DNA of 48,155 nucleotides from an uncultured Gammaproteobacteria bacterium (GTDB lineage: Bacteria; Patescibacteriota; Microgenomatia; PFEM01; CAYIUX01). The stretch is taken from NCBI GenBank assembly GCA_964366795.1, contig CAYIUX010000001.1, positions 1 to 48,155 on the forward strand. The letters are read 5' to 3'. Below the pieces are notes generated by a model that had not been told where the DNA came from, made no database searches, and saw only the letters and a program-made list of their open reading frames with translations. Position numbers and translations under genes: made by a program. Positions 9,313 to 43,492 of this stretch are shown in pieces. Positions within the stretch are counted from its first letter, which is position 1. Every line of letters begins with the position of its first letter.

Positions 9313-9315
9313 ATC

Positions 9316-14139: not shown

Positions 14140-14153
14140 TTTAGCAGAAAGTG

Positions 14154-15808: not shown

Positions 15809-16636
15809 ATGGAAACCAATCCTCTTGTTTCGGTAATAATTCCTGCCAAAAATTCAGCCCAATTTATTAAATCCTGTCTGGAAAGTATCAAAAAACAGAC
15901 TTATAAAAACATTGAAATTATTGTTGTTGATAATAATTCAACTGATAAAACAAAGGAGATTGTTTGCAAATACACAAAATTAGTTTTTAATCATGGTCCA
16001 GAACGGGCAGCTCAAATGAACTTTGGGATAAAGAAAGCTAAGGGTCAATATTTATATCGAGTTGATTCCGATTTTATTTTAGAACCCGAAGTAGTTGAAC
16101 AATGTGTAGAAAAATGTGAGAAAGAGAGCCTAGACGGTATTGCCGTGATTAATACTTCGGCTGAAGGACTTGGTTTTTGGGCTGATGTCAGAAAACTTGA
16201 AAGAAATGCCTATCGAGACGACGAACTGATTGTTGCCGTTAGATTCTTTAGTAAAAAATCATTTGAGAAAATCGGTGGTTTTGATGAGACCTTATATGGA
16301 CCAGAAGATTATGATTTTCATAATCGTTTTTTAAAGGCAGGGTTTAAATGGGGTAGAATCAGGGCGATTGAGAGACATTTAGGAGAGCCAAAATCTTTGC
16401 TGGATATTGCTAAAAAACATTTTTTTTATGGTCAAGAAATGCTTTCTTACTTAAAAAAACATCCCCAAAGGGGACTAAAGCAAATAAATCCTGTCAGAAG
16501 AGCTTATTTACGCCACTGGAAGGATTTTATTTCTCACCCTAGTCTATCTTTGGGAATTGGCATTATGACAATTGTTAAATTTGGCACTGGAGGATTAGGA
16601 TTTATTAAAGCATTAATCTTTGGTCCAAGAAGATAA
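15809..16636 (+). CDS. GT2 family glycosyltransferase
   Basis: 275 aa. Motifs are VSVIIPAKNSAQFI...KQTYKNIEIIVVDNNSTDKT...YRVDSDF. It is a clear paralogue of 28066-28908, sharing KQTY-NIEIIV, DSD and CV-KCEK. Confidence 0.85.
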   Translation: METNPLVSVIIPAKNSAQFIKSCLESIKKQTYKNIEIIVVDNNSTDKTKEIVCKYTKLVFNHGPERAAQMNFGIKKAKGQYLYRVDSDFILEPEVVEQCVEKCEKESLDGIAVINTSAEGLGFWADVRKLERNAYRDDELIVAVRFFSKKSFEKIGGFDETLYGPEDYDFHNRFLKAGFKWGRIRAIERHLGEPKSLLDIAKKHFFYGQEMLSYLKKHPQRGLKQINPVRRAYLRHWKDFISHPSLSLGIGIMTIVKFGTGGLGFIKALIFGPRR

Positions 16637-16637
16637 T

Positions 16638-17372
16638 ATGGCAAAAGAAAAAAAACTACCATCTGGAATTTCTATCATTCTACCTGCCTTCAATGAAGAA
16701 AAAAACATTGAGCAAATGGTTGACGAGTGTTTATCTTATTTGCGGAAATTAAAAGATGGTTATGAAATTATTATTGTTAATGACGGTTCGTGGGACAAAA
16801 CTGGAGAGATTGCTCAAAAAATCGCCCAAAGGAATAAAAAAGTTAGAGTACTCACTCACCCTGTGAATAAGGGCTATGCCCAAGCCCTAAGAGACGGATT
16901 TAATTCTGCTAAGTTCGATTATGTTTTTTTTACTGATGCTGATAGGCAGTTTAAGCTAGATGCTTTAGACGTAATGTTTCCAATTGCTAAAACTCAAGTA
17001 GTTGATTTGGTTATTGGTTATCGATTAAAAAGAAAAGATCCATTTTTAAGAAAATTCCTTTCTTGGGGCTACAATACTTTAGCCAGTTTCCTTTTTGACT
17101 TAAATGTTAAAGATATTGATTGCGCTTTCAAACTATTTAGGAAAGACATTTTTAAAAAGATTAAAATTGAATCCAAATACTTCTTTTTTAATACAGAAAT
17201 TTTAGCCAAAGCAAGATTTTTTGGTTTCAATATTATCGAGGTTGGAGTTCCTCATTTTCCCCGAACTGCTGGAAAATCAACAGTGAGTTTTAAATATATC
17301 CCCCTGACAATTAGAGAGTTAATCAGAATCAGAAAAAACCTGCAAAAGTTAAAAAAAGGGAGAAAGAGTTGA
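16638..17372 (+). CDS. GT2 polyprenyl-phosphate sugar synthase-like (soluble Dpm1-type)
   Basis: The tracked ORF starts at 16620. ATG 16638 sits 1 nt after the upstream stop. Motifs are ISIILPAFNEEKNI...EIIIVNDGSWDKT...NKGYAQALRDGF...FFTDADRQF. No TM helices are present. Confidence 0.82.
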   Translation: MAKEKKLPSGISIILPAFNEEKNIEQMVDECLSYLRKLKDGYEIIIVNDGSWDKTGEIAQKIAQRNKKVRVLTHPVNKGYAQALRDGFNSAKFDYVFFTDADRQFKLDALDVMFPIAKTQVVDLVIGYRLKRKDPFLRKFLSWGYNTLASFLFDLNVKDIDCAFKLFRKDIFKKIKIESKYFFFNTEILAKARFFGFNIIEVGVPHFPRTAGKSTVSFKYIPLTIRELIRIRKNLQKLKKGRKS

Positions 17373-18769
17373 GAATTCTTTTGGTTAAACCAGTTACTCC
17401 TCAAGGAGTAGTTTTGAATTGTATTCCCCCAATTGGGTTAGGTTATCTTGCCACCGCTCTTCGAAAGGAGAGATTTAAAGATGTCGCTATTCTTGATTGC
17501 GTAAAGGAGGGGCTAGATTATCCTTCATTTAAGAAAAAAATTAACAAATACCGACCCGACATTGTTGGCTTCCAGATTTTTTCCCAAGATTTACCTTCTT
17601 TGGAAAAGAGCCTTGAAATAGTAAAAAAAATTAATCCCCAAATTATTACCCTTGCCGGTGGTCCCCATCCTTCAGGTTTACCAGAAGAAACACTTAAAGA
17701 TTTTAAAAATCTCGATTTTGTCTTCTGTGGTGAGGCAGAAATTGGACTACCCATGCTTGTCAGGGCTTTAAAAACAAGAAGGGGATTTTCCCAGATCCCA
17801 GGATTAGGCTGGAGAAATAAAAAAGGGAAAATAGTCATCAATCCCCAAATTTTTGTTGATGATTTAGATGGTTTGGGATTTCCTGCCTGGGATTTGCTAA
17901 AACCCCAAGAATATCCCGATGCCCCACAGGGGATAATTTTTAAAAATTTACCGATTGCTCCAATTATGGCTACCAGAGGCTGCCCTTTTTCTTGTACTTT
18001 TTGTGCCGGTTGGACAATCTCTGGAAAGAAAGTAAGAAGAAGAAGCGTTGGTCATATTTTGAAGGAAATAGAATTTTTATATAAAAAATATGGAGTGAGA
18101 GAAATTCATTTTTTGGATGACAATTTTACTTTAAATAGGGATTATGTTGAGGATTTTTGTCGCCAACTTTTAAAAAAAGGCTTTAAAATTAGCTGGTGTT
18201 GCCCAAATGGAGTCAGGCTTGATACTTTAAATAAAAGGCTTTTGAAACTAATGAAAAAAGCGGGCTGTTATTATGTTTCGGTGGGAATTGAGTCAGGCTC
18301 CGATCGGATTTTAACACTAATGAAAAAGGGAACAACCATCAAAAAAATAAAAAAAATGACGAAGATGGTAAATGAGGTGAGGATGACAATTAACGGATTT
18401 TTTATTCTTGGCTATCCTGGGGAAACAAAAAAAGATATTCTTAAAACTATAAAATTTGCTAAAAGTCTGGGTCTCACTCGAGCCGCCTTTTATAATTATT
18501 TACCTTTACCGCGAACCGAATCATATCAAAAGTTATTAGCTAACGGCGAATTTAAAGAAAAAAGAATTGACTGGAATCAAATTTTTCAGGCGGACGTACC
18601 TTACGCCCCGATGGGCATTAGTCAAAAAGAATTAAAAGACCTCCAAAGACGGGCTCATTTGGAGTTTTACCTCCGCCCAATAATTCTCTGGCGGTTGATT
18701 AAAGAAATTCGCACATTTGAACAATTAAAATATATTTTAAGAAGGGCGAAAGCTTACATGCTAGGATGA
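17369..18769 (+). CDS. B12-binding (class B) radical SAM enzyme
   Basis: 466 aa. The N-terminus reads MRILLVKP...IGLGYLATAL...LAGGPHPSGLPEE...FCGEAE. The cluster motif is TRGCPFSCTFCAG. The C-terminal EFYLRPIILWRLIKEIRTFEQLK is shared with 29574-30989. There are ATGA overlaps at both ends. Confidence 0.88.
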   Translation: MRILLVKPVTPQGVVLNCIPPIGLGYLATALRKERFKDVAILDCVKEGLDYPSFKKKINKYRPDIVGFQIFSQDLPSLEKSLEIVKKINPQIITLAGGPHPSGLPEETLKDFKNLDFVFCGEAEIGLPMLVRALKTRRGFSQIPGLGWRNKKGKIVINPQIFVDDLDGLGFPAWDLLKPQEYPDAPQGIIFKNLPIAPIMATRGCPFSCTFCAGWTISGKKVRRRSVGHILKEIEFLYKKYGVREIHFLDDNFTLNRDYVEDFCRQLLKKGFKISWCCPNGVRLDTLNKRLLKLMKKAGCYYVSVGIESGSDRILTLMKKGTTIKKIKKMTKMVNEVRMTINGFFILGYPGETKKDILKTIKFAKSLGLTRAAFYNYLPLPRTESYQKLLANGEFKEKRIDWNQIFQADVPYAPMGISQKELKDLQRRAHLEFYLRPIILWRLIKEIRTFEQLKYILRRAKAYMLG

Positions 18770-19392
18770 ATATAAAAACCGCCACCACCTTAACAAAAAA
18801 GCTTTATCAAAATCTTGGTTGGCCAACAACTTTTACTCGTATTCGTTTTTTTACTGCTCCATACGAGAAGTTAGAGCAATTAATTCCCAAAAAAGGCTTT
18901 ATTATTGATTTGGGTTGTGGCTATGGGATTTTTAGTAATTTTTTGGGTCTAACTGGACCGAAAAGGCAAATTTTAGGGATAGAGCTTGATTCTGAAAAGA
19001 TTAAATTTGCCAATAGGGGGGTGGCTAATGTTAAATTTTTGGAAGCAGATATTACCAAAATAACCCTCAAAAAAGCAGGGGCTATTTTGTTGATTCATGT
19101 ATTGCATCATTTGAATTCTTTTCAAGAACAGGAGAAGCTTTTGACTGAATGTAAAAAGAAATTAACTAGAAATGGAGAGTTAATTATTGCTGAAGTTGAT
19201 AAAAAACCATTTTTTAAGTTTATTTTAGGGCGATTAGCTGATTTTCTTTTATATCCTGGGGATAAAATTTACTATCGGTTTCCAGATGAATTTGGTAGGC
19301 TGTTTACTAAGCTGGGATTTAAAGCTAAAATTATCAAAGCCGATAAAGGTAAACCTTTTGCCCATGTTATTTATGTTTTAGAAAAAAAATGA
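18766..19392 (+). CDS. Class I SAM-dependent methyltransferase
   Basis: 208 aa. Motif I is IIDLGCGYGIFS, followed by acidic loop residues and the LLIHVLHHL post-II region typical of Methyltransf_11/25-like proteins. Confidence 0.78.
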   Translation: MNIKTATTLTKKLYQNLGWPTTFTRIRFFTAPYEKLEQLIPKKGFIIDLGCGYGIFSNFLGLTGPKRQILGIELDSEKIKFANRGVANVKFLEADITKITLKKAGAILLIHVLHHLNSFQEQEKLLTECKKKLTRNGELIIAEVDKKPFFKFILGRLADFLLYPGDKIYYRFPDEFGRLFTKLGFKAKIIKADKGKPFAHVIYVLEKK

Positions 19393-21608
19393 GAAAGATA
19401 TTAAAAGAAAATATTACTATTGTTCTTATCTTATTAGCCGCTTTTCTTATTCGAATAATTGGTACAAACCCCGGCTATCCTCCCTATCATCCCGATGAAC
19501 CGATGAGCTATAGTTCAGCCATGAATATGATTATCAATGGGAATTTGGATCCCAAACGCTATGATTATCCAGCTGGGGTTCCTCTAGTTCATATGGTTTT
19601 TTACAGGATTTTTTTTCTTCCAATAGCTCTTTTTAAACTTTTTTTCCCTCATCCACGGGTATTTTTCACCGCCTTACAAATCGGGCCTCGATTTATGGAT
19701 GAATTTAAAGTGGCTATTTTTGGTCGTGGTGAGTACGAGGCTCTGTTCTTTTCCAGATATGTAACCGCCATTCTTGGCGCGGGGATAGTTTTTTTAACTT
19801 ATCTTTTAGCCAAAAGGGTTTTCAATAAAAATACCGGTTTGATTGCGGCATTTTTTCTGGCATTTAACTATCGTCATGTTTTCTCGTCTCATTTTGCTTT
19901 ATCTGATATTCCTAATGGTTTTTTTGCTGTTCTGGCAGTTTTAGCCTGTGCTTTTTTACTGGAAAAACAAAGTCGGAGTCGTTATTTGTTGGCAGGCTTA
20001 ACCTGTGGTCTTTATTTATCAATGAAATATCAATTTTTCCCCATTTTTACTTTTATATTTATCCATTTAACTTGGGTTGTTAGGAAAAAATCTTTAAAAG
20101 AGATCTTTAATAAAAATTTTGTTATCGCCTTATTTTTAATTCCGATAATTTTTGCCGTAATTAACCCCTATCTGCTCCTAAATCTAAAAGAAGCAATTCC
20201 GATAATTAAATACGTTGGCATGCGCTACCACATGGGTATAAGAAAATTTGCATTTTACCCCTATTTTTATTTATATCATTGGGGGATTGGCAATTTACCG
20301 TTTTTGGCGATTATTAGTGGGTTCTTACTGGGTTTAACTCTTAAACCACTAAGAACTCTTTTCCTTTTGTCTTTTATTCTTCCCTTCCTTTTTGTCATGA
20401 CCTATTACTCTGGAGGGGGACTTTTTACCCGTAATTTTACGACAGTTATTCCTTTTTTAGTTATTTTTGCCGGATTTTTCTTGGCTGAAGCATTTCGTTT
20501 GCTCAAGAAAATAACTAAATTGTCTGCTTATGTTTTAGCTCCAATTTTTTTTATTTTGCTTTTTATAGTTAACTTGGAATCAATTAAAAATTCAACCGCT
20601 CTTGCTTATTTTTATACAAAACCCTGGAACATCGATAGACTTTCTGTTTGGCTAGCAAAAAATCTCCCTCCTAATGTTCAGGTTAAAAGTCATTCGGGGG
20701 TTAACTTTCCTGAAGGGAAAAATATAAACCGCGTAGATTGGCCTATCTTTGAGGAAAATTCCCTTAAAGAATTTCAGGAGGATGACAATCAGTTTGCGGT
20801 CATGAACATAGATTCATATCACCTGTTATTATATGATTGGTTTAATTTATCTCCCAAACAGATGATTAAATATTCTGGCGTTCCTTACGAATATCTTGCT
20901 AATACTTTCCCAGGATTAGCTTTAGAAGAATGGCTGGATTTCACCGTCGGAGAATTTTTTAAACCTTGGCAGACCAACGATTTAAATTATCTTGTTTTTA
21001 AAATACCCTCACCCCTAGATAATCCTGGGAAAAAAATTGTTGCTTTTAACTTTGCCGAAAACGAGGAGGGCTGGCGGGTTAAAGGGACATTGGGACAAAA
21101 AATAATAGGATTTATTTGGGATGAAAATGAAGGATATTCTGGAAAGGGGAGTTTAAAAATTGATCAAGGGGCAAGTGGATTTTCCACCGCTCATTTTTCC
21201 TCGCCCCCAATTCCCATTAAGCCAGGTAAATATTATATCTTTTCTGGTTGGATTAAAAACAGCGATAAATTGAATAGTCGGAACCGGGATGGATTTTTAA
21301 GAATGGAGTTTTTTAAAGATAGAGCTGATGCCCAGATAAGTAAAGATAGATTAAAAGTTGCCTTATCTGCTCGTGTTTTTGGAACTACCGAATGGGTTGA
21401 GAAAAAAGCGGAGGCGGTGGCTCCCGAGGGTGCCCACTTTGTAGTTTTAAGTTTTCAACGGAATAATTTATCTTCGGGGTTTTCTTCTTGGCTTGATGAG
21501 GTGGCTCTTTTTGAATCTGATACTTTGCCTCCCCAAAATTTTCCAAATATTCCTTATATCAAACCAAAAATTTCGGAAAAAGAATTGTATCCCATAAGCA
21601 TTTTATGA
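19389..21608 (+). CDS. GT-C membrane glycosyltransferase (GT39/ArnT-like) fused to a C-terminal carbohydrate-binding-module-like domain
   Basis: 739 aa. The first loop YPPYHPDEPMSYSSAMNM carries the DE motif. It has about 11 TM segments. A large extracytoplasmic C-terminal region includes a CBM4/9-like beta-sandwich. Confidence 0.78.
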   Translation: MRKILKENITIVLILLAAFLIRIIGTNPGYPPYHPDEPMSYSSAMNMIINGNLDPKRYDYPAGVPLVHMVFYRIFFLPIALFKLFFPHPRVFFTALQIGPRFMDEFKVAIFGRGEYEALFFSRYVTAILGAGIVFLTYLLAKRVFNKNTGLIAAFFLAFNYRHVFSSHFALSDIPNGFFAVLAVLACAFLLEKQSRSRYLLAGLTCGLYLSMKYQFFPIFTFIFIHLTWVVRKKSLKEIFNKNFVIALFLIPIIFAVINPYLLLNLKEAIPIIKYVGMRYHMGIRKFAFYPYFYLYHWGIGNLPFLAIISGFLLGLTLKPLRTLFLLSFILPFLFVMTYYSGGGLFTRNFTTVIPFLVIFAGFFLAEAFRLLKKITKLSAYVLAPIFFILLFIVNLESIKNSTALAYFYTKPWNIDRLSVWLAKNLPPNVQVKSHSGVNFPEGKNINRVDWPIFEENSLKEFQEDDNQFAVMNIDSYHLLLYDWFNLSPKQMIKYSGVPYEYLANTFPGLALEEWLDFTVGEFFKPWQTNDLNYLVFKIPSPLDNPGKKIVAFNFAENEEGWRVKGTLGQKIIGFIWDENEGYSGKGSLKIDQGASGFSTAHFSSPPIPIKPGKYYIFSGWIKNSDKLNSRNRDGFLRMEFFKDRADAQISKDRLKVALSARVFGTTEWVEKKAEAVAPEGAHFVVLSFQRNNLSSGFSSWLDEVALFESDTLPPQNFPNIPYIKPKISEKELYPISIL
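21034..21516 (+). other. CBM_4_9/galactose-binding-like beta-sandwich domain of the GT-C at 19389-21608
   Basis: The sequence NFAENEEGWRVKG...WDENEGYSGKGSLKID...IPIKPGKYYIFSGWIKN...TEWVEKKAEAVAPEGAHFVVLSFQRNN...WLDEVALFE matches the usual CBM4/9 pattern: W..G, G.GSLK, PG..Y..SGW.K, W......F..P, DDV.L. Confidence 0.5.
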
Positions 21609-22909
21609 ATTTTTTTAATTCTCTTTTGGAAAAAATAAAAAACAAAAAAGCCAAAATTGGCATTATTGGCCTGGGATATGTTGGTTTGCCATTGGCAGTT
21701 TGTTTTGCCAAAAATGGGTTTCAGGTTACCGGTTTGGATATTGATAAAAACAAAGTCAAGGCAATTAATCGCGGAGAAAATTATTTGAAAGAGATGGGAA
21801 TTAATGAGGATTTTAAAAAAGTCGTTAGGGAAGGATTTTTAAAAGCCAGTTCAGAGATTGTTTCTGGGTGTAAAAACCAGGATGTGATTATAATCTGCGT
21901 TCCAACCCCGGTTGATAAAAAGCACAGACCTAACATTAACTCATTAAAAAAAGCAGCCAAATCAATTGGTTTATCCAAACCATTAGGCAAGCTGATAGTT
22001 AATGAATCAACGGTTGCCCCCTCAACTACCGCCTCTATTGTCGGTAGTATTATTCAAAAAGAATCCCGCCTTCGGCGGGGAAATGATTTTTTTCTTGGTT
22101 GTTCACCAGAAAGGATTAATCCCGGAGACTTAAAACATCGGCTGGAAAATACTCCGAAAGTGGTGGCTGGACTAGGGAAAGAGGATCTCGCCCTGACAAA
22201 AGCCCTTTATGAGATGATTATAAAAGCGCTACTAGTAACAGTTAGCTCCTTGGAAGTAGCCGAGACGGTGAAACTTTTAGAGAATAGTTATCGGGCAGTG
22301 AATATCGCTCTAATAAATGAATTAGCGAAATTTTGCCAAAAAACTGGACTTGATGTTTTAGAAATAATCGAAGCAGCAAAATCAAAATGGACTTTTCAAG
22401 CTCATTACCCAGGGGTTGGGGTTGGTGGTCATTGTATTCCCGTTGATCCTTATTATCTTTTAGATATGGCAAAAAAAGAAGGAGTTAAAATGCCCATGCT
22501 AGAAAAAGCCCTAATGGAAAATGAAAGTATGCCGGAGTTTGTGGCTGGATACGTTGCTAATAATTATCAACCAGGAAGCAAGGTTTTGGTTTATGGCCTT
22601 TCCTATAAACCTGGAGTTAAGGATGTTAGGGAGAGTCCGGCTGTCGCCCTTTGTCAGATTTTGAAAAAAAGAAAAATAAAATTTGAGGTTTATGATCCTT
22701 TTTATACCCTTTCGGAGATTAGGGGTTTTGGATTAAAACCTTGCCGTCGACTCACCCGATTTGATTTATTAATCGTCGCTACCGACCATCAACAGTTGGA
22801 AAAAGACGCAAAGCAGATAATTGGACCAAAGACAATCATCATCGACGGCCGAAATTTTTTCAAGAAAAAAGTCGGCAAAATGGTTGTGGGGGTAGGAAGG
22901 AGATTATGA
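21605..22909 (+). CDS. Nucleotide-sugar 6-dehydrogenase (UDP-glucose/GDP-mannose dehydrogenase family, WecC/TviB/Cap5O-like)
   Basis: 434 aa. The N-terminal Rossmann motif is KIGIIGLGYVGLPLAVCFAKNGFQVTGLDID. The catalytic Cys motif is GVGVGGHCIPVDPYY. The C-terminal UDP-binding region is LVYGLSYKPGVKDVRESPA. Confidence 0.88.
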   Translation: MNFFNSLLEKIKNKKAKIGIIGLGYVGLPLAVCFAKNGFQVTGLDIDKNKVKAINRGENYLKEMGINEDFKKVVREGFLKASSEIVSGCKNQDVIIICVPTPVDKKHRPNINSLKKAAKSIGLSKPLGKLIVNESTVAPSTTASIVGSIIQKESRLRRGNDFFLGCSPERINPGDLKHRLENTPKVVAGLGKEDLALTKALYEMIIKALLVTVSSLEVAETVKLLENSYRAVNIALINELAKFCQKTGLDVLEIIEAAKSKWTFQAHYPGVGVGGHCIPVDPYYLLDMAKKEGVKMPMLEKALMENESMPEFVAGYVANNYQPGSKVLVYGLSYKPGVKDVRESPAVALCQILKKRKIKFEVYDPFYTLSEIRGFGLKPCRRLTRFDLLIVATDHQQLEKDAKQIIGPKTIIIDGRNFFKKKVGKMVVGVGRRL

Positions 22910-23589
22910 AAATGAAGAAATTAGTAGAAATAGATTCCAAGAAATTTTATGAAATTAACGAATTGGTTGTAAGAACGACTCCCATGAGGACTCATTATCA
23001 TTCAAAAAATATTTTGGAAAGATGGGTTTGGCAAAGAAAGAAAAAAATTATTAAAAATTTGCTCGATAATCTCTCTTATAATTCAATTATTGACGTCGGG
23101 TGTGCAGATGGTGGTCTTTTTGAATTGGTAAAGGAAAATTGTGATTATACCGGAGTAGATATTTCGCCTACTCAAATTGCTTATTTTAAGCGTATTTTGA
23201 AAGAAAATAAAATCACTAATAAAGCAGAATTAATCAAGGCTGATGCCAGGAAAATGCCTTTTAAAAATAGAAAATTCGATGTGGCTCTGGCATGTGATGT
23301 TTTGGAACATCTGCTCGACCCTATAAAAAGCATGAGAGAAATAAAAAGAGTAGTTAAGAATGGGGGTTATGTTATCTTTAGTATTCCAAATGAAAGTCTT
23401 TTCCAGCTTGTGAGGCTTTTGACAGGAAGATTTCCCCTTCGCTCCCCAGACCATTTGTATTCAATAACAGTTGAAGATATTAAACAACATTTCCCAAAAA
23501 TTATAAAACAATTTGGAATTCCCCTAAATTTATCTCCCAATTTAAATTTAATTAATATTTTGTTGGTGAAGAATGAACACCGTCGTTAA
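22906..23589 (+). CDS. Class I SAM-dependent methyltransferase
   Basis: 227 aa. Motif I is IIDVGCADGGLFE. Other motifs are DISPTQI and FDVALACDVLEHL...NGGYVIFSIPN (Methyltransf_11-like). Confidence 0.78.
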   Translation: MKMKKLVEIDSKKFYEINELVVRTTPMRTHYHSKNILERWVWQRKKKIIKNLLDNLSYNSIIDVGCADGGLFELVKENCDYTGVDISPTQIAYFKRILKENKITNKAELIKADARKMPFKNRKFDVALACDVLEHLLDPIKSMREIKRVVKNGGYVIFSIPNESLFQLVRLLTGRFPLRSPDHLYSITVEDIKQHFPKIIKQFGIPLNLSPNLNLINILLVKNEHRR

Positions 23590-25300
23590 TTTAAAAACTA
23601 GATATATTTTTTTAATAATCACAATAGCGATTTTATTTACTTTCTGGGAATTACCTAAGACTTTTTTCCAGCAAGATGAATGGCAATATTTTGGTTCTAT
23701 AATTTATGCCCTATCTTCCGATAATCATTTCTTAAGCATCATTCTGCCATTTAAAGGAGGGTTGACCCATTTCTTTCCCCTCTCGAACTTGTTTTTCCTT
23801 TTGGAATATCTTTTATTTAAAACAGATTTTCCTCCTTACGCATTGGTAAATATAACTTTTCATCTCATAAATACGTTTTTGGTTTTTTTTCTGATAAAAA
23901 AAATTTCCAAAAGGACAATAATTGCCTTTATGGCGTCTTTACTTTTCGCCGTTAACAGCATTTCTCATCAAGCTGTGAGTTGGGTGGCGAGCGTGATTGG
24001 CACTTTGCCGAGTACTCTTTTTATCTTGCTCTCTTTAATTTTTTTTGTTGATTATCTTGAGAAAGAAAATCGCTTTAAGTATTTTTTGGTTTCTTTGTTT
24101 TTTTTAACCGTCGCTCTTCTTTTGAAAGAAACAGCAGTTTTTTTATTTGTTTTCTTTCCCCTAGCTTGGCTTATTTATAATTTTTCAAATCTGAAAATCA
24201 GCCTTATAGGAGCTAAAAAACCGTTTTTAGCCCTGATTTCTTTTGGGGTTTTTTACGTATTTCTAAGGGTTTTCTTATTATTTTTTGGGCTTAGCTCATC
24301 GCAGCCCGAAGTTACAGATGTAAGCATTGTTCCTTTGCCCGCATATATTTACCGATTATTTACAATTCCTCTTAAGGCAGTTTCTCAGAGTATTTTTCCT
24401 GCAAAGATGATTCTTGGTTTCTCTAGGAGAATTGTTTATCTTGCTTACCCTCAATTTATAGCCTCTGATGGGATGGCAGATCCATATTTAGTTGAAAGCG
24501 CCGTCGCCGATCTTGTTGTTTATGGTTTGGTAGCGATTATCCTCCTCTTATTTTATTGTGTTTTCAGGTATCTGGTAGGTAATAAAGAAAAGAGCTTAAC
24601 TAAAGCCCTGGTATTTTCTTTGGTTTTTATGGGTATCAGTTCTTTGCCTTTTGTTTTTGTTCCCGGACGCGCTGGTTATTTTTCCATTTTTGAGCCGCGA
24701 AATCTTTATATTTTAGCAATCGGTTCGAGTCTTATGTTGGTTATTTTTTCTTATATTTTAGCGAGCTTGCTGAGTAAAAAGCCTAAAATTGTTAATTTTT
24801 TAACTTTGTTTTTTCTAATACCTCTTTTATTCTTTCATATTAAAACTATTCAAAAAGATATTAAGAATTTGAAAGTTATTAGTGATTTAAGAAGGTCTTT
24901 TTTAATTCAGATTCAGACATCTTATCCTGAATTACCCCAAAAAGTAATATTTTATACCCAAAGCGATGCTTGCTATTATGGCCTGCCAGAAGAAGAGAAA
25001 ACTTTGCCGGTTCAATCTGGATTTGGTCGAATGTTGATGATTTGGTATCAAGAAAAAGAAAATTTTCCGGGATGTCTTTATGAAGATCAGTTTCTCCATG
25101 ATTTAATTTCCCAGGGTTATCAAGAATGCCAGGGAAGGGGATTTGGTTATTTTCGGGATTATAATCAGTTAAAAGAAGCTTTAAGAGAGAATAATCTTTC
25201 GGTTGATGATGTTTTTGCTTTTTCTTGGAAAGGAAAAGCCGAAGAGTTTAAGGATGTTAGTCAACAGATAAGGGAAAAACTTCAAAATGAGAAGATTTAA
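23573..25300 (+). CDS. Multi-pass GT-C-like membrane protein (PMT/TMTC-like motif pattern), paralogue of 26420-28069
   Basis: 575 aa. The first loop is FFQQDEWQYFG (a DE motif). This is followed by FHLINTFLVFFLIKK and LLFAVNSISHQAVSWVAS, which resembles the YHxxNxxLH / LLFAxHPxHxEAVxW arrangement of PMT/TMTC-type GT-C enzymes. The C-terminal soluble domain is about 150 aa and has no TPRs. Confidence 0.55.
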   Translation: MNTVVNLKTRYIFLIITIAILFTFWELPKTFFQQDEWQYFGSIIYALSSDNHFLSIILPFKGGLTHFFPLSNLFFLLEYLLFKTDFPPYALVNITFHLINTFLVFFLIKKISKRTIIAFMASLLFAVNSISHQAVSWVASVIGTLPSTLFILLSLIFFVDYLEKENRFKYFLVSLFFLTVALLLKETAVFLFVFFPLAWLIYNFSNLKISLIGAKKPFLALISFGVFYVFLRVFLLFFGLSSSQPEVTDVSIVPLPAYIYRLFTIPLKAVSQSIFPAKMILGFSRRIVYLAYPQFIASDGMADPYLVESAVADLVVYGLVAIILLLFYCVFRYLVGNKEKSLTKALVFSLVFMGISSLPFVFVPGRAGYFSIFEPRNLYILAIGSSLMLVIFSYILASLLSKKPKIVNFLTLFFLIPLLFFHIKTIQKDIKNLKVISDLRRSFLIQIQTSYPELPQKVIFYTQSDACYYGLPEEEKTLPVQSGFGRMLMIWYQEKENFPGCLYEDQFLHDLISQGYQECQGRGFGYFRDYNQLKEALRENNLSVDDVFAFSWKGKAEEFKDVSQQIREKLQNEKI

Positions 25301-26423
25301 ACTGTTATTTTTTTTGTTTTTAAGAAATCCACTGGCGAGTGTGATTGCTGTTTTCCAGGTTATTCGAAAAAAATCTCTTTTGGATTACCGATTATTCAAT
25401 AATGGCTTTAGTTTTTATCCGACCACCATTGTTTTTCATCCGACTGCCAGGTGTAATCTGAATTGCAAAATGTGTGTGATTAGTTCTTATGATTTTCCCA
25501 AAGAACTGACGCTTTTGGAAATTAAAAAAATAATTGACCAGATTGCTTTTTTTAAGCCCCATTTTTACATCGCCGGAGGCGAGCCGCTTTTGAGGAATGA
25601 TTTAGAGCAAATAATTGCCTACGCTAAAAAGAGGGGATTGATAACTACTTTTACAACCAATGGAATTTTGCTCAATAGCAAAAGAGCAAGAAGTTTGATT
25701 AAATCTGGAGTTGATGGTATTGCTGTTTCAATTGACGGACCAAAAATGATTAATGACCAGATAAGAGGTAAAGGTAATTTCGAAAAAGCAGTGGAGGGGA
25801 TAAGACTTCTTAGGAAGGTTCGCCAAAGAAACAATACCCTTTTCCCCAAATTAAAAATAGCCACCGTCATTTCCGGTTTTTCTTATCGTTATTTGGAAGA
25901 GATGGTTAAGTTAGCTGGAGATTTAAAAATCGAGGAGATTGTATTTTTCCACTTGGATTATAAAACTCAAAAAATTGCTAAAACTCACCAAAATTGTATG
26001 ATAGGGTACTTTAATCAGTCAATAGGCTGTTTGGGTTATGTGGTGGGGAATATGCTTTCACTGGCAGAGAAAAAATTTGTCGGCATCAAACCAGAGATTT
26101 TGAAACAACAAATTCAAAAAATCTTCTCCCGGCCACATCCAGTTTCTGTTTCTTTTGCTCCCCCTGTTCCTTTTGCTAAAATTGATGATTATTATAGCGG
26201 CAAATATTTTAATGATTTTGCCTGCACTAATCCTTGGTTTTCCGTTACAATTTTACCAAATGGAGATTTAGTGCCATGTTTTAGCTTGAAAGCCGGCAAC
26301 CTAATGGAGGAAGATTTTAGATATTTGTGGAATAGTGACTTATATAAAAAATTTCGACGATATCTTAAGAAAAACCGCCATTTCCCAGGATGTTTCCGTT
26401 GTTGCGGAACCACCGACGTATGA
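25287..26423 (+). CDS. Radical SAM enzyme with C-terminal SPASM/twitch domain
   Basis: 378 aa. The cluster motif is HPTARCNLNCKMCV and the SAM-binding motif is AGGEPLLRND. The C-terminal CTNPWFSVTILPNGDLVPC...PGCFRCC fits Cx12Gx4C...CxxCC. Confidence 0.85.
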   Translation: MRRFKLLFFLFLRNPLASVIAVFQVIRKKSLLDYRLFNNGFSFYPTTIVFHPTARCNLNCKMCVISSYDFPKELTLLEIKKIIDQIAFFKPHFYIAGGEPLLRNDLEQIIAYAKKRGLITTFTTNGILLNSKRARSLIKSGVDGIAVSIDGPKMINDQIRGKGNFEKAVEGIRLLRKVRQRNNTLFPKLKIATVISGFSYRYLEEMVKLAGDLKIEEIVFFHLDYKTQKIAKTHQNCMIGYFNQSIGCLGYVVGNMLSLAEKKFVGIKPEILKQQIQKIFSRPHPVSVSFAPPVPFAKIDDYYSGKYFNDFACTNPWFSVTILPNGDLVPCFSLKAGNLMEEDFRYLWNSDLYKKFRRYLKKNRHFPGCFRCCGTTDV

Positions 26424-28069
26424 GAAAAAAAGACGCCATCACCATTTTTTTGTTATATTTCCTTTTCATCCTTTTTGTTTTTTGGGGTTTTCCAAAAACA
26501 TTCTTCCAGCAGGATGAATGGGCGATTTTTGGCAATTTGATTTATTGGGAGAAAGCCGGACTTTCCTGGTTTGAAAGATTGTTTGTTTACGAACAAGATG
26601 TCCATATTTTGCCTTTTAGTCAGTTGCTTTCCTATTTCCAGTTTCAATTGTTCGGTTTAGATTTTAGTCGTTATGCATTTTTTAGCCTCGGGCTACACCT
26701 CGTAAACTCTTTTTTGGTTTTCTATCTAAGTTTTCTAATTTTGAAGAAAAAATGGTTAAGTTTTGCCATCGGGTTGCTGTTTGCGGTTAATTCAATCTCC
26801 CATCAGGCGGTAACTTGGGTGGCGACGACTACCGGAACAGTGGGAACAACTATTTTCCTCCTTCTAACTTTGATTTTCTTTATCAAAAAAAATTTGGTTT
26901 TATCTTTACTGATGCTTGTTTTGTCTTTGAGTTTTAAAGAAACATCACTTTTTCTTTTTGCTTTTTTGCCAGTTTTTTGGTTAATCTTTGAAAGAAAAAT
27001 TTCCCTTGCGAATTTTAAAAAAATCCTTGTTCCGCTTTTGGTAGTAGGCTTTTTATATTTTTGCTTAAGAATTCTTTTGGCTATTAATGCTCCGCCATCT
27101 TCGGCGCCGCCGGGGACAGTCTCTCAACCTATTACGCCGGTAGTTTATCTCTATCGTGTTTTTACTCTTCCGGCTAAGGCAATTTCTCAAAGCATCGTCC
27201 CCGCGAATTTGATTCTTGGTTTATCAAAAATAATGGTTCTTCTCGCTTATCCTCATTTTGCTCCCAAGGGGGTTCCTGATCCTTATGTGGTCGAGAGCGT
27301 GGCGGCAGATATTGTGACTTATGGTTTAACGACAATAATTCTTATCATTTCTTGGTATGTCTTCAAATATTTTAGGGGTTTAAAAGAAGAGAATCTTAGC
27401 AAATCGCTAGTTTTTTCCCTATCTTTTATTGCCTTTGGTTGTCTGCCACTTATTTTTATTCCCGGAAAAGCGGGATATTTTTCGATTTTTGAGCCCCGAC
27501 ATTTTTATATTTTAAGCCTTGGTTCTAGCTTGTTTTTAGCAATTATGATTTACACTTTTAGCCGTTGGCAAAAGGTTTTGGGGATTGTGTTTTTAATTTT
27601 CCTAATCTTCTTTCATGGTTACAAAATTAAGGCTGATATTGGAAGACAGGTGGATGTTGGGCAGTTGAGAAAATCAATTCTTGTCCAAATTTACAAAACC
27701 TATCCTAATCTGCCCGAAAAGGTAATTTTTTACACCGAAAGCGACAAAGCTTATTATGGTTTGCCGCCCGAAGAAAAAATTTTGCCTTTTCAATCAGGTT
27801 TTGGGCAAACCCTTTTAGTTTGGTATAATAATCGAGGGGAAGAATTTCCCGCCTGTTTTTTTAAGGAAAAATTCCTTTATGTACTTTTAAGTGAAGATTA
27901 TAAGTTCTGTCAAGGAAGAGAGTTTGGGTATTTTCGAAAACTTGAACTTTTAAACGAAGCGGTGAAAGAAAACAATCTGCCTAAAGAAAGCATAATCGCT
28001 TTTTCTTACGATTCAACAAATCAATCTCTAATTGATATTACCTTAAAAATTCGCCAACAGCTTAAATGA
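26420..28069 (+). CDS. Multi-pass GT-C-like membrane protein (PMT/TMTC-like), paralogue of 23573-25300
   Basis: The tracked ORF starts at 26390. ATG 26420 forms an ATGA overlap with the upstream stop and gives MRKKDAITIFLLYF. Motifs are FFQQDEWAIFG, LHLVNSFLVFYLS and LLFAVNSISHQAVTWVAT. It is colinear with 23573-25300 to the C-terminus (YYGLPPEEKILPFQSGFGQ). Confidence 0.55.
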   Translation: MRKKDAITIFLLYFLFILFVFWGFPKTFFQQDEWAIFGNLIYWEKAGLSWFERLFVYEQDVHILPFSQLLSYFQFQLFGLDFSRYAFFSLGLHLVNSFLVFYLSFLILKKKWLSFAIGLLFAVNSISHQAVTWVATTTGTVGTTIFLLLTLIFFIKKNLVLSLLMLVLSLSFKETSLFLFAFLPVFWLIFERKISLANFKKILVPLLVVGFLYFCLRILLAINAPPSSAPPGTVSQPITPVVYLYRVFTLPAKAISQSIVPANLILGLSKIMVLLAYPHFAPKGVPDPYVVESVAADIVTYGLTTIILIISWYVFKYFRGLKEENLSKSLVFSLSFIAFGCLPLIFIPGKAGYFSIFEPRHFYILSLGSSLFLAIMIYTFSRWQKVLGIVFLIFLIFFHGYKIKADIGRQVDVGQLRKSILVQIYKTYPNLPEKVIFYTESDKAYYGLPPEEKILPFQSGFGQTLLVWYNNRGEEFPACFFKEKFLYVLLSEDYKFCQGREFGYFRKLELLNEAVKENNLPKESIIAFSYDSTNQSLIDITLKIRQQLK

Positions 28070-28908
28070 AAAAATTTCCTTTGGTTTCGGTCAATATTCC
28101 TACTTATAACTCCAGTCTGACATTGGCTGAGACCCTAGAATCGGTGAAGAAACAAACATATCCCAACATTGAAATTATAGTTGCCGATGGTCACAGTCAG
28201 GATGATACCCTAAAGATTGCCAAAAAATACGGCGCCAAAGTTTATTATGCTCAAGAATTAGGTCGAGCCAGATTTAAAGCGTTTTCTAAAAGCCAGGGAA
28301 AATATGTTTTATTTTTCGATTCAGACCAAGTGATGGATAAAGATTTAATCGCCAAATGTGTGGCAAAATGTGAGAAAACAAATTGCGACGCCCTAACCTT
28401 ATCAGAAAAATCAATTATTAGAAAAGGAACACTGGTGGAAAAACTGATTGCCTATGACAAATTCGTGATTGATTCTTTAAAAGATGATGATGCGATTTTC
28501 GGAACGGCTGTTCCCCGTTTTTTTAGAGCAGAAATTTTAAGAGGAATTGTTTGGCCCAAAGAACTTTCTGTTTTTGACCATACAGGAATTTTTTTGGAAA
28601 TCGTCAAAAAAGGGGCTAAGGTGGAATATATATCTTCGCCATCATTGAGACATTATGAAGTTGATAGTTGGAGAAAATTTTTCAAAAAATTCTATCGTTA
28701 TGGACTTTATTATTTTGATGCTTTAAAGGGTTATCCTGGACCAGTCATTGCTCATAGTTTTCCTAGAAGAGTTTATTTTACAAAAGTGGCTTTAAGAAAA
28801 CCTGCCTGGTTTCTTGGCCTTTTATTTTTGTATTTTGTTAAAGGAATTGCCGCTGCTCTAGGGATTATCGCTTATTTTTTGAGAAAAGGAAAAGTTTATG
28901 AAAGTTAG
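28066..28908 (+). CDS. GT2 family glycosyltransferase
   Basis: 280 aa. Motifs are VSVNIPTYNSSLTL...KQTYPNIEIIVADGHSQDDT...LFFDSDQ. It is a paralogue of 15809-16636. Confidence 0.85.
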   Translation: MKKFPLVSVNIPTYNSSLTLAETLESVKKQTYPNIEIIVADGHSQDDTLKIAKKYGAKVYYAQELGRARFKAFSKSQGKYVLFFDSDQVMDKDLIAKCVAKCEKTNCDALTLSEKSIIRKGTLVEKLIAYDKFVIDSLKDDDAIFGTAVPRFFRAEILRGIVWPKELSVFDHTGIFLEIVKKGAKVEYISSPSLRHYEVDSWRKFFKKFYRYGLYYFDALKGYPGPVIAHSFPRRVYFTKVALRKPAWFLGLLFLYFVKGIAAALGIIAYFLRKGKVYES

Positions 28909-29566
28909 TGTGGTTATACCAGCCAAAAACGAAGAAGAAGGGATTGAAAAGATTATAAAACAAGTCCGCCCCCTGGCGGATGAAATTTTGGTTGTTGATG
29001 GTCATTCAAAAGATAAAACTCGGCAAATTGCCAAGGAATATGGGGCCAAAGTCGTCTTAGATGGAGGTAGAGGAAAGGGAGATGGTATAAGGAAGGGGAT
29101 TAGAAAAGCAAAAGGAGATATTATTGTTTTTATTGATGCCGATGGTTCTCATAACCCTCGCGATATTCCTAAATTGGTGGCACCAATTAAAAAGGGAGAA
29201 GCCGATTTGGTAGTCGCTTCTCGGGCAAAAGGAGGAAGTGATGAGGTTAGACTGGATTTTGAAGGTTTATTTAGACAAATTGGTAGCGAAATTGCCGCCA
29301 TTTTAGTTAATCTTCGTTGGCGGGCAAACTTAACTGATATTCAAAATGGGTTTCGGGCGATAAGGAAAAAAACTGCTTTAGCTTTAAAGTTGGAATCTAA
29401 TGGGTTTGAAATTGAAGAGGAAATGATTATGAAATGTCTTAAACACAAGGGAAGAATCGTAGAAGTTGCTGGTCATGAATATCAAAGGAAATGGGGAGTT
29501 TCTAAACTCCCAACAATTCAAGCCTGGAGGTTTCTTTTAAGGCTTTTTAAAGAATTACTAAGTTGA
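28898..29566 (+). CDS. GT2 polyprenyl-phosphate sugar synthase-like (soluble Dpm1-type)
   Basis: 222 aa. Motifs are VSVVIPAKNEEEGI...ILVVDGHSKDKT...GKGDGIRKGI...VFIDADGSH. It is the positional equivalent of 16638-17372. Confidence 0.82.
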   Translation: MKVSVVIPAKNEEEGIEKIIKQVRPLADEILVVDGHSKDKTRQIAKEYGAKVVLDGGRGKGDGIRKGIRKAKGDIIVFIDADGSHNPRDIPKLVAPIKKGEADLVVASRAKGGSDEVRLDFEGLFRQIGSEIAAILVNLRWRANLTDIQNGFRAIRKKTALALKLESNGFEIEEEMIMKCLKHKGRIVEVAGHEYQRKWGVSKLPTIQAWRFLLRLFKELLS

Positions 29567-29573
29567 GGAAATC

Positions 29574-30989
29574 ATGAAAGTCTACCTAATTAATCCTCCT
29601 GCCTACCAGGGAATAAAAATTGTTCGCGAAGGCAGGTGTATGCAAAGAAGGGGAGCCTGGACGGCCGTTTGGGCGCCAGTTTCTTTAGCCATCATTGCCG
29701 CTGTTTTGGAAAATGAGGGTTTTGAGGTTAAATTAGATGATTGTATTGTTAATGAAATTGACTTTCCCCAACTTCAACAAGAGCTTAAACGATTTAAGCC
29801 AGATTTGATAGTTATTAATACTGCCACCCCATCAATAGTTACTGATCTTAAGGTGGCAAGTTTAGCAAAAAAAGCAAATCCAAAATGTAAAACTGTTGTC
29901 TTTGGAATTCATGTAACGGCTTTACCTGAAGAATCACTGAAGATGGAGCCGGCATTGGATTGCGTTGTCCGGGGTGAACCGGAAATAACAATTAAAGATA
30001 TTGCTTTGGCAATAAGGAAAAAGAGGGGATTGGAAAAAATTAAGGGAATTTCTTTCAAAAAAGGCAAAAAAATCGTTCACAATCCAGACCGACCGCCATT
30101 GGAAAATTTAGACAAACTTCCCTTTCCCGCCTGGCAACATATAAAAATCAACCGTCATCTTATGCCTTTCAAAAACACCCCCTTTTTATTAGTTGCCACC
30201 GGCAGGGGATGTCCATATCAATGTAAATTTTGTGCTGACAAAACCTTCTATGGGATGAGATTGAGATTACGGTCGCCTAAAAGCGTAGTTGATGAAATAG
30301 AATGGGTAGGTAAAAAATTTGGAGTCAAAGATTTCTTGTTTTGGTCAGAATCTTTTACCATTAACCATCAATTTGCCCAAAGCGTCGCTCAAGAAATTAT
30401 CCGTCGCCGACTTAAAGTTTCCTGGGTTTGCAATAGTCGGGTGGACACTGTTGATTACCCTTTGCTCAAAAAATTTGCCCAGGCTGGATGTTGGATGATA
30501 GGTTATGGAATTGAAAGTGGAGAGCAAAAAGTTTTAGATATGATGGAGAAAGGAACGACTCTTAAACAGGCTAAAAGGGCCGTCCAAGATGCTCATCGAG
30601 CAGGACTGGAAGTGACTGGTCATTGTGTGATTGGATATCCCGGGGAAACGAGAAAGACCACTCAACAGACGATTGAATTTGCTAAGAATCTTGATTTGGA
30701 TTTTGTTCAATTTTATTGTGCTGTTCCTTTCCCTGGTTCCGACCTTTTTGATCTGGCAAAAAAGGAAAATTGGATAACCAGCGAAGATTGGGGTTTTTTT
30801 GAGCAAAACTTTTCTGTTTTAACTACCCCCAACCTTAAGGCAGAGGAAGTTATGGAACTAAGACGCCAGGCTTTTAACAATTTTTATTTAAGACCAAAGA
30901 TTATTTGGCAAACGATAAAAAGAATCCGTTCCTTTGGCGACTTAAAACAGTTTTTCTGGATGGTTAAAGATTTTATTACCTGGATATGA
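29574..30989 (+). CDS. B12-binding (class B) radical SAM enzyme
   Basis: 471 aa. An RBS (gaggaa) lies upstream. The N-terminus reads MKVYLINPP...VFGIHVTALPEE...VRGEPE. The cluster motif is GRGCPYQCKFCAD. The C-terminal NFYLRPKIIWQTIKRIRSFGDLK is shared with 17369-18769. Confidence 0.88.
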   Translation: MKVYLINPPAYQGIKIVREGRCMQRRGAWTAVWAPVSLAIIAAVLENEGFEVKLDDCIVNEIDFPQLQQELKRFKPDLIVINTATPSIVTDLKVASLAKKANPKCKTVVFGIHVTALPEESLKMEPALDCVVRGEPEITIKDIALAIRKKRGLEKIKGISFKKGKKIVHNPDRPPLENLDKLPFPAWQHIKINRHLMPFKNTPFLLVATGRGCPYQCKFCADKTFYGMRLRLRSPKSVVDEIEWVGKKFGVKDFLFWSESFTINHQFAQSVAQEIIRRRLKVSWVCNSRVDTVDYPLLKKFAQAGCWMIGYGIESGEQKVLDMMEKGTTLKQAKRAVQDAHRAGLEVTGHCVIGYPGETRKTTQQTIEFAKNLDLDFVQFYCAVPFPGSDLFDLAKKENWITSEDWGFFEQNFSVLTTPNLKAEEVMELRRQAFNNFYLRPKIIWQTIKRIRSFGDLKQFFWMVKDFITWI

Positions 30990-33683: not shown

Positions 33684-34489
33684 TTATTCCGTCCACCAGA
33701 ACTAAAGGCTTAAAAAAAACCAGAGAGTCTCTTTTGCGTCAAAAAACTAAATTTTCTTATGAGATAATTGTTATTAAGAACCTTCTGCCAGGACAGGCGC
33801 GGAATTTGGGAGCGAAAAAAGCTTCAGGTAAATATCTTTTATTTTTGGATGACGACTGTATTGCATCCAAAGATTGGATAGAAAAAAATATTAATTTTTT
33901 AAAGAGTCGAAAAAATATTGGTGCTGTTGGAGGAAAAATAGTCGGCAAATCACCTAAATTTTTTAGTCGCTGTACTGACTATACCAATTTCTGGCGCCAG
34001 CAAAATAATCAACTAAGAAAGACAAGCCAACTTTATACCGCTTCACTGGCAGTGAAGAAGGAAGCATTCCTAAAGGTCAGTGGTTTTGATGAAAAAGCTA
34101 AAGTTGGCGAGGATGTTGATTTTATTAATAAATTAGAAAAATATGGTTATATCAGCTGGTATAACCCAGAAATAGTGGTTCTTCACAATCACAAGAGAGA
34201 TACTCTTAGTAAGTTTCTCAAGTATATGTATAACAATGGCTTAGCAACTGGTCTTTATATTTTAAAAACTCACCAGAGAATTGCCCTTGTTAGGGTGTTA
34301 TTACCAATTTTCAAACAAGCCTACTTTTTATTTATAATCCCAATGGCAATTTTATACACTGGAGCGAATCTTTATTTGAACTTTTCTTCAAACTGGAAAA
34401 TAATTTTTTTAATGCCTTTTATCTTTTTGGGTTATCTTGTTTATCATTTGGGTATTGCCGTAAGATTATTAAAGGAGATTTTTCAATGA
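33668..34489 (+). CDS. GT2 family glycosyltransferase with C-terminal TM segments
   Basis: 273 aa. Motifs are SIIIPSTR...GQARNLGAKKASGKYLLFLDDDC (DxD) and GEDVDF. It has two to three C-terminal hydrophobic helices. Confidence 0.78.
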   Translation: MEASIIIPSTRTKGLKKTRESLLRQKTKFSYEIIVIKNLLPGQARNLGAKKASGKYLLFLDDDCIASKDWIEKNINFLKSRKNIGAVGGKIVGKSPKFFSRCTDYTNFWRQQNNQLRKTSQLYTASLAVKKEAFLKVSGFDEKAKVGEDVDFINKLEKYGYISWYNPEIVVLHNHKRDTLSKFLKYMYNNGLATGLYILKTHQRIALVRVLLPIFKQAYFLFIIPMAILYTGANLYLNFSSNWKIIFLMPFIFLGYLVYHLGIAVRLLKEIFQ

Positions 34490-43490: not shown

Positions 43491-43492
43491 AA

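Follow-up and report, generated by a model that had tools for sequence, protein, structure and literature searches.

The 48,155-bp contig CAYIUX010000001.1, analysed whole and referred to here as the window, carries in two places the gene order glycosyltransferase family 2 (GT2), GT2, B12-binding radical S-adenosylmethionine enzyme (rSAM) and membrane protein, once at 15809-21608 (set A) and once at 28066-32500 (set B; Table 1). We propose, with confidence about evenly balanced against doubt, that these sets are non-orthologous copies of a widely conserved module lying in a surface-glycan locus of a groundwater bacterium of the candidate phyla radiation (CPR)/Patescibacteria, and that the rSAM of this module tailors a lipid-linked sugar before its transfer by a GT-C glycosyltransferase. 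The core of the module is a short soluble GT2 resembling DPM1, AglJ and ArnC, the stop codon of which overlaps or abuts the start of a cobalamin-type rSAM gene, usually with a methyltransferase and a GT-C nearby. The conserved unit consists of two genes, accompanied in many loci by the methyltransferase and the GT-C, and the window holds at least three copies of it, not two.

A first-pass annotation of the window had described the two sets as a duplicated three-gene cassette whose products work as one functional unit. Its observations on gene order and motifs stood: the open reading frames (ORFs) lie where they were placed, all four GT2 proteins belong to PF00535, the first GT2s of the sets (A1 and B1) share the motifs KKQTY.NIEIIV, DSD and CV.KCEK, the second (A2 and B2) carry DADRQF and DADGSH, and the motif FYLRP..W..IK.IR.F..LK is present in both rSAM-A and rSAM-B. 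A membrane gene does follow each set, a PMT/PMT_2 gene in A and a gene with a GT-C fold in B, but the carbohydrate-binding module that had been assigned to the former was not upheld; its C-terminal domain matches CBM_4_9 (PF02018) over half the profile at 19.1 bits, below the cut-off of 25.9 (E 0.0017), which does no more than suggest a weak likeness to CBM_4_9.

When the 37 gene categories of the window were permuted with strands held fixed, two or more GT2-GT2-B12-rSAM triples arose in 0.16% of shuffles (P = 0.0016) and three or more GT2-to-B12-rSAM pairs in 2% (P = 0.02), and because both are so rare we conclude that the repeated order is not due to chance. Some adjacency of these genes is nevertheless expected because the window is crowded with them (by Pfam, six GT2, six B12-binding rSAM and three other rSAM genes among some 37), and at least one triple appeared in 9% of shuffles, so that it was reasonable to ask whether the repetition might be an accident of composition without functional meaning. 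Set against the shuffle values, and largely refuted by the recurrence of the B2-rSAM-B pair in many phyla (34 to 52 of 75 independent loci), this explanation seems to us very improbable.

These loci came from a genome scan with the rSAM-B family, which gave 80 loci spread over at least 10 phyla, every one from an uncultured organism; 75 had enough upstream sequence to be counted by tblastn, a B2 homologue being scored at a coverage of at least 50%. A B2 homologue (median identity 50%) ends within 150 bp of the rSAM-B start on the same strand in 34 of the 75, and lies within 2.5 kb upstream in 52. Counts based on ORFs concur, with the GT2 partner directly upstream in 37/75 and no more than two genes away in 48/75. 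The full GT2-GT2-rSAM triple, which the first-pass annotation had treated as the unit, was found in only 1 of 72 loci; a homologue of B1 was found in none of the 75, and a homologue of A1, although present somewhere in the locus in 6/75, never lay upstream of rSAM-B (0/75).

Generic motifs were used to scan metagenomes for the A family, and since only 18 of the loci obtained are true A-family members the synteny statistics for this family are thin. In L173, which is 73% identical to set A, the order is GT2(245)-rSAM-methyltransferase(213)-PMT(750), with a UDP-sugar dehydrogenase gene further on and a PMT_2 gene at the position corresponding to A1; in L172 (64% identity) the order is methyltransferase-GT2-rSAM. 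A1 is absent from both. Among 13 distant A-family loci, 11 have membrane proteins within two genes of the rSAM. The pair of GT2 and B12 rSAM is thus conserved strongly for B and among closer relatives only for A, and because it is the pair, and not the triple, that recurs in rSAM-B and close rSAM-A loci, we take a DPM1-like GT2 with a B12 rSAM to be the conserved unit.

The same domain order found twice could also have been left by a true segmental duplication of the GT2-GT2-rSAM cassette, in this lineage or an ancestor, the copies having diverged to about 30% identity and acting as one working unit. Besides the shuffle result, this explanation draws on the first GT2s, which are reciprocal best hits in BLASTP comparisons within the window (31% identity over 277 aa, 94 bits) and pair at 70% bootstrap in neighbor-joining trees that include outside homologues, and on a C-terminal helix containing FYLRP that the rSAM-A and rSAM-B families share and the other four B12 rSAMs of the window lack. 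The paralogy claimed for the two sets, however, extends no further than A1 and B1, the only members that are each other's closest relatives. A2 is closer to another GT2 of the window, 9316-10218(-) (107 bits), than to B2 (71 bits), and the sister pairing of A2 with B2 received 22% bootstrap, that of the two rSAMs 25.5%. rSAM-B matches rSAM-A (258 bits) and the rSAM at 35459 (259 bits) equally well. Pairwise identity is uniform, at 30-34%, for five of the six B12 rSAMs in the window, the sixth, 7846-9312(-), being only 24-27% identical to them. The two rSAMs are 33% identical to each other, whereas each is 50-60% identical to its own orthologues in other phyla, and a 14-residue N-terminal insertion, VREGRCMQRxGAWT, is found in the rSAM-B family and not in rSAM-A. 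Orthologues of rSAM-A (50-88% identity) occur in Omnitrophica, Nitrospirota, Elusimicrobia and Nanoarchaeia, and those of rSAM-B (53-90%) in Actinobacteria/Thermoleophilia, Elusimicrobia, Omnitrophota, Nitrospirota and Patescibacteria. Together with the rarity of the triple, the absence of B1 homologues and the PMT_2 gene in the place of A1 in L173, these comparisons make a cassette duplication unlikely, and they place A and B, as judged from sequence, in separate old orthologue groups rather than in a duplication that was recent or clean. Because both share the FYLRP helix that the others lack, the two rSAM clades may go back to a deep common origin; this would be distinct from duplication of a cassette in this lineage. 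The claim of a duplicated three-gene cassette is largely unsupported and is the less interesting part of the first-pass annotation, and we drop it. Among the rSAMs of the window, only two others group as sisters with good support, 690-2129(-) and 3377-4798(+), which flank a GT4 gene and are 35% identical (91.5% bootstrap).

The first GT2s stand outside the conserved unit. The GT2 tree splits at 100% bootstrap into one clade of A2, B2 and the ArnC-like 9316-10218(-) and another of A1, B1 and the GT2 at 33668. The best Protein Data Bank (PDB) matches of B1 are chondroitin synthase, TarS and TarP, and A1 clusters with B1; the two are a lineage-specific paralogue pair of the polymer-type GT2 class. 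With this type of GT2 missing upstream of the rSAM-B orthologues and replaced by PMT_2 in L173, the idea that the three genes form one conserved unit falls away.

The window contains further GT2-rSAM pairs. One on the minus strand, at 7846-10218, had not been counted in the first-pass annotation; its GT2 scores 184 bits against the ArnC model and has two C-terminal transmembrane (TM) segments, and two PMT_2 GT-C genes precede it. Another begins with the GT2 at 33668, which is followed by the non-B12 rSAM at 34486. Homologues of these two genes stand directly after the B2-rSAM-B pair in three CPR loci (L019, L021 and L026), the match to the GT2 being weak in L019 and L026, and a similar GT2-rSAM pair occurs in L174. 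The locus is better described as a series of repeated GT2-rSAM pairs of different orthologue groups, three with a B12 rSAM and a fourth with a non-B12 rSAM.

We then considered what the second GT2s might make. The top PDB match of both is DPMS (5mlz), at E 2.4e-16 for A2, followed by ArnC and GtrB, and at E 7.5e-21 over residues 1-217 for B2, followed by GpgS and ArnC. Both match 5mlz over the whole catalytic domain and carry the DAD motif, and no TM segment was predicted in either. With a GT-A domain, a DxD motif and nearest relatives among DPMS, ArnC and GtrB rather than among polymer-forming GT2s, A2 and B2 have the features of GT2s that act on polyprenyl phosphate, and we predict that they are polyprenyl-phosphate sugar synthases, the acceptor being suggested by this kinship. 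The NCBIfam scores stay below the cut-offs: 150 bits for B2 against AglJ (cut-off 325) and 85 against PpgS (cut-off 370), and 71 bits for A2 against ArnC (cut-off 529) and 74 against PgfS. Genes identical to those of the window occur in 0.1-µm-filter metagenomes from Hainich groundwater, and replicate assemblies of this population differ in the B2 gene, which is called at 140 aa in one (L175 265-687) and at 222 aa in the other (L176 325-993); the short call reflects either an error of assembly or a variant that truncates the gene.

Both rSAMs score above the gathering thresholds of PF02310 and PF04055, and all of 22 sequences keep the cysteines of the CxxxCxxC motif (Cys213, Cys217 and Cys220 in rSAM-B). 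We therefore predict from these features that rSAM-A and rSAM-B are cobalamin-dependent (class B) radical SAM enzymes. Among characterised families, rSAM-B gives a full-length match to HpnJ (TIGR03471) with 317 bits, where the cut-off is 577.6, and rSAM-A scores about 200 bits against both a P-methyltransferase family and HpnJ (201 bits for HpnJ); PDB relatives are AprD4 and TokK. The identification of rSAM-B as HpnJ itself was rejected on this score and for want of a hopanoid context: no hopanoid genes (squalene-hopene cyclase, hpnH/G/I/K) were found by Pfam in the 48-kb window, and no hopanoid families stood among the common annotated neighbour families of the 80 rSAM-B loci.

These neighbour families, obtained by clustering and by scanning cluster representatives against Pfam, offer a view of the setting in which the pair operates. 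The most frequent are further B12 rSAMs (32 loci), followed by GT9 (18), class I methyltransferases (16), SPASM-type rSAMs (11), Wzx/MurJ-like flippases (11) and relatives of the membrane proteins encoded at 23573 and 26390 in the window, which combine a near-threshold PMT_2 match with TPR repeats and mostly lie directly downstream (11). PMT_2 proteins occur in 8 loci, DegT aminotransferases, PNP_UDP_1 phosphorylases/nucleosidases and RACo-type corrinoid reductive activators in 6 each, and paired small SMR/EamA-like proteins with four TM segments, which resemble ArnE/F, in 5. In loci from Thermoleophilia and Actinomycetes, a B2-type GT2 is followed by an A-like rSAM, rSAM-B and then the SMR-like pair. 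Examples of the recurring neighbours are the RACo gene of L060 (11979-13553, with five other loci), the PNP_UDP_1 gene of L029 (5085-5816), the product of which possibly serves to clear 5'-deoxyadenosine, and the SMR/EamA gene of L018 (9424-9852).

The methyltransferase has its own ties to the pair. The order rSAM-methyltransferase-PMT_2 recurs with an rSAM-B orthologue in L009, and in three loci from Planctomycetia and Omnitrophota metagenome-assembled genomes the rSAM-B orthologue is fused to a C-terminal class I methyltransferase (L064 8001-10175, L071 59-2269 and L067 926-2591); L068 encodes a methyltransferase of the fusion type as a separate gene. The three fusions link rSAM-B to the methyltransferase that in the window follows rSAM-A.

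The membrane protein of set A is a GT-C by Pfam, with 45.5 bits against PF02366 (cut-off 22.7) and 43.5 bits against PF13231 (cut-off 26.1). The membrane protein of set B has no Pfam match, and its assignment comes from an AlphaFold2 model built from 62 family sequences (predicted local distance difference test score 91.6, predicted template-modeling (TM) score 0.91). The top 11 PDB matches of this model in Foldseek are all GT-C enzymes (PglB, STT3, DPY19 and ArnT). The seven highest-ranked have a probability of 1.00 and the remaining four 0.92-0.99, and the E-values run from 7e-4 to 0.15; the TM-scores on the query, 0.33-0.50, indicate a moderate match and not a close one. Residues E35 and D63, conserved in at least 90% of the 62 family members, lie between helix 1 (residues 2-29) and the helix 64-77 of the model, a position in which they may have a catalytic role in a first extracytoplasmic loop like that of GT-C enzymes. 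An exhaustive HMMER search with this protein gave 191 relatives at 23-34% identity, whereas a word-index protein search gave 4; it belongs to a GT-C family of proteins about 500 aa long, which evolves fast and for which Pfam has no model. The two membrane proteins encoded at 23573 and 26390 are also probable GT-Cs, to judge from their sequences. They are 47% identical, have 9-10 TM segments and bracket a SPASM radical SAM gene (25287-26423), their motif FFQQDEW resembles the DE motif in loop 1 of PMT, and relatives in Omnitrophota and Edwardsbacteria, which carry C-terminal TPR repeats, directly follow rSAM-B orthologues.

From what is observed, namely the domain identities, the GT-C fold, the order of the genes, the conserved pairing and the gene fusions, we infer the substrates, the chemistry and the sequence of steps as follows. 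The GT2 would move a sugar from a nucleotide sugar to polyprenyl phosphate at the cytoplasmic face of the membrane, the B12 rSAM would tailor the lipid-linked sugar by C-methylation or by a rearrangement like that proposed for HpnJ, and the methyltransferase may add a further methyl group. The sugar-loaded carrier would then be flipped across the membrane, where the adjacent GT-C would pass the sugar so modified to an acceptor, either protein or glycan. The first-pass annotation had sketched much the same path, from a polyprenyl-phosphate sugar through radical modification to transfer by GT-C, and this part agrees with the points tested here even as its premises of a duplication and a three-gene unit do not.

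Several points weigh against the proposal. About 30% of the rSAM-B loci have no B2 homologue within 2.5 kb, and in the A family a GT2 is directly upstream of the rSAM in only 2 of 18 loci and within two genes in 5. All NCBIfam matches of A2, B2 and the two rSAMs fall below their cut-offs, no carrier flippase recognisable by Pfam (GtrA, GtcA or ArnE/F type) was found in the window, and in L174 no GT-C adjoins the pair. The function suggested for both rSAM families is drawn from sequence, fold and gene order, and the rSAM could act before the GT2, on the nucleotide sugar, or on another substrate entirely.

This last point can be put as an explanation in its own right, in which the rSAMs modify some other substrate of the envelope pathway, such as a nucleotide sugar, a polyprenyl or membrane lipid chain (compare HpnP/HpnR and the archaeal lipid methylases) or an acceptor that is a protein or peptide, and adjacency to the GT2 reflects co-regulation only. 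The substrates of B12 rSAMs are very broad, the profiles match BchE, P-methyltransferases and enzymes of lipids and of peptides that are made on the ribosome and modified after translation (RiPPs) with similar strength, the best PDB matches, AprD4 and TokK, act on soluble substrates, and some loci carry the GT2-rSAM pair with no GT-C nearby. On the other hand, co-regulation sits poorly with a single GT2 orthologue group kept tightly adjacent in at least 10 phyla, often with overlapping stop and start codons; the neighbours often include carrier-flippase-like and GT-C genes, and the nearest characterised family, HpnJ, acts on a lipid-linked sugar. No candidate precursor peptide was noticed in the window, though none was searched for, and for this reason, and with the locus dominated by GT-C genes, a RiPP or glycocin reading was set aside. 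We regard the other-substrate explanation as less likely than not. Returning to the tailoring of a carrier-linked sugar, a more specific form of it can be put forward tentatively, at less than even likelihood: that rSAM-A and rSAM-B each stand for a large, uncharacterised clade of cobalamin rSAMs acting on polyprenyl-phosphate-linked sugars, with C-methylated or ring-rearranged products (carbocyclic, like those of HpnJ or the calditol pathway) that are installed on the cell surface by GT-C enzymes.

Three-component systems of carrier glycosylation are known in ArnC/ArnD/ArnE-F/ArnT, GtrA/GtrB/Gtr, CsbB/GtcA/YfhO and PpgS/Rv3779, and in the Arn system ArnD tailors the lipid-linked sugar before it is flipped. 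The module resembles these in placing a GT2 like DPM1, ArnC and GtrB beside a GT-C (of PMT_2, YfhO-like or oligosaccharyltransferase-like fold) and, in some related loci, in the presence of small SMR-like membrane proteins. It differs from them in that the tailoring enzyme is a cobalamin rSAM, often accompanied by a methyltransferase, and in that no flippase was recognised in the window. The best structural and sequence relatives of A2 and B2 are the DPMS of Pyrococcus furiosus (5mlz), the C-terminal TM domain of which they lack, and archaeal AglJ.

The nearest precedents for the tailoring of a sugar already bound to a lipid, compared by description, are HpnJ and calditol synthase, with MoeK5 and GenK as precedents for C-methylation of a glycoside. 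In the hopanoid side-chain pathway of Burkholderia cenocepacia, the GT2 HpnI attaches a hexosamine to a lipid, and HpnJ, which acts after it, is a cobalamin-type rSAM proposed to contract the ring of a lipid-linked glucosamine (PMC13459092, PMC9204698). As in HpnI/HpnK/HpnJ, a GT2 here would be followed by a cobalamin rSAM acting on a lipid-linked sugar, and rSAM-B aligns with HpnJ throughout. Unlike the HpnJ branch, the window is free of hopanoid genes, the host lineages include CPR and DPANN, the GT2 partnered with the rSAM resembles DPM1 and does not match HpnI, the deacetylase of HpnK (YdjC) type is not seen here, although L173 has a Polysacc_deac_1 gene, and the lipid would be polyprenyl phosphate with a GT-C to follow. 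Calditol synthase (Cds) of Sulfolobus acidocaldarius, MoeK5 of moenomycin and GenK/GenD1 of gentamicin biosynthesis are likewise rSAMs that alter attached sugars by ring contraction or C-methylation; several of them belong to the cobalamin class, and the sugar is attached to a lipid or an aglycone (PMC13459092, PMC9204698). In contrast to the proposed module, Cds, MoeK5 and GenK/GenD1 give end products (a lipid head group, antibiotics) and not a carrier sugar for a GT-C. A module of GT2, B12 rSAM and GT-C was not found described in the open-access literature, a limited sample, and because the search was confined to that literature the negative is weak evidence of absence. The radical SAM clusters reported from Elusimicrobia surround NifH-like paralogues, a different context (bioRxiv 10.1101/765248).

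The remainder of the window fits a locus given over to glycans. The contig has about 35% GC, its nearest relatives are Patescibacteria/CPR, with DUF5667 on its first gene, and no tRNA or Rfam family was found in it. By Pfam and TM prediction nearly all of its roughly 37 genes encode glycan machinery, including four GT4 genes, three class I methyltransferases, a UDP-sugar dehydrogenase, an epimerase and 12 polytopic membrane proteins predicted to have 7-10 TM segments, several matching PMT/PMT_2, AftD or DUF2079. The dehydrogenase is a probable supplier of nucleotide sugar. A co-directional run of 21 ORFs, mostly with 4-nt overlaps of start and stop, occupies about 23 kb at 14151-36964(+), so that both sets are stretches within one long array. 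At the head of this run, a PMT_2 GT-C gene (14151-15803, +) is split by one in-frame TAA at 15219-15221; its halves are 57% and 47% identical to an intact paralogue at 4788-6782. The split may reflect a pseudogene, variation within the population or an error of sequencing; recoding of the stop is unlikely because elsewhere in the window TGA, TAA and TAG all serve as ordinary stops. Further on, a gene for a 1108-aa AftD-like GT-C (39853-43179, +) is followed by an ORF at 43119-43490(+) and by a shorter paralogue of the GT-C, 28% identical, at 43454-45100. The ORF between them encodes 123 aa with 3-4 TM segments and no family match, and is the sole flippase candidate noticed in the window.

Table 1. 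Genes of the two sets, their neighbours and the further GT2-rSAM pairs (window coordinates)
Feature	Coordinates	Strand	Assignment and remarks
GT2 A1	15809..16636	+	PF00535, 103 bits; general polymer-type GT2
GT2 A2	16638..17372	+	PF00535, 112 bits; short, soluble, DPM1/ArnC/GtrB-like
rSAM-A	17369..18769	+	PF02310 + PF04055; start overlaps A2 stop by 4 nt
Class I SAM methyltransferase	18766..19392	+	Methyltransf_11/23/25/31; same position in L173
GT-C transferase, C-terminal beta-rich domain	19389..21608	+	PF02366, PF13231; 9 TM segments; orthologous position in L173
UDP-glucose/GDP-mannose dehydrogenase family enzyme	21605..22909	+	PF03721, PF00984, PF03720; counterpart in L173
Polytopic membrane protein	23573..25300	+	9 TM segments; FFQQDEW after TM1; no Pfam match
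Polytopic membrane protein	26390..28069	+	Directly upstream of set B; FFQQDEW after TM1; no Pfam match
GT2 B1	28066..28908	+	PF00535; general polymer-type GT2, C-terminal TM anchor
GT2 B2	28898..29566	+	PF00535; short, soluble, DPM1/AglJ-like; conserved partner of rSAM-B
rSAM-B	29574..30989	+	PF02310 + PF04055; HpnJ-like clade
GT-C-fold membrane glycosyltransferase	30986..32500	+	No Pfam match; AlphaFold2 model and Foldseek
Third module	7846..11330	-	GT-C 11330-10218, ArnC-like GT2 10218-9316, B12 rSAM 9312-7846
Further pair	33668..36964	+	GT2 33668-34489, non-B12 rSAM 34486-35547, B12 rSAM 35459-36964; Pfam

The envelopes of CPR and DPANN organisms mediate an episymbiotic lifestyle and are chemically almost uncharacterised. 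If the proposed scheme is true, it would add to carrier glycosylation an undescribed tailoring step, widespread in CPR, DPANN, Elusimicrobia, Omnitrophota, Planctomycetota and Thermoleophilia, in which radical chemistry edits carrier-linked sugars before export, a step that the textbook Arn, Gtr and PMT schemes lack. It provides a defined and testable substrate hypothesis for two large orphan rSAM clades, and the minimal two-gene pair at 28898-30989 could be expressed in a heterologous host; the scheme would imply that the surfaces of CPR and DPANN cells bear unusual sugars.

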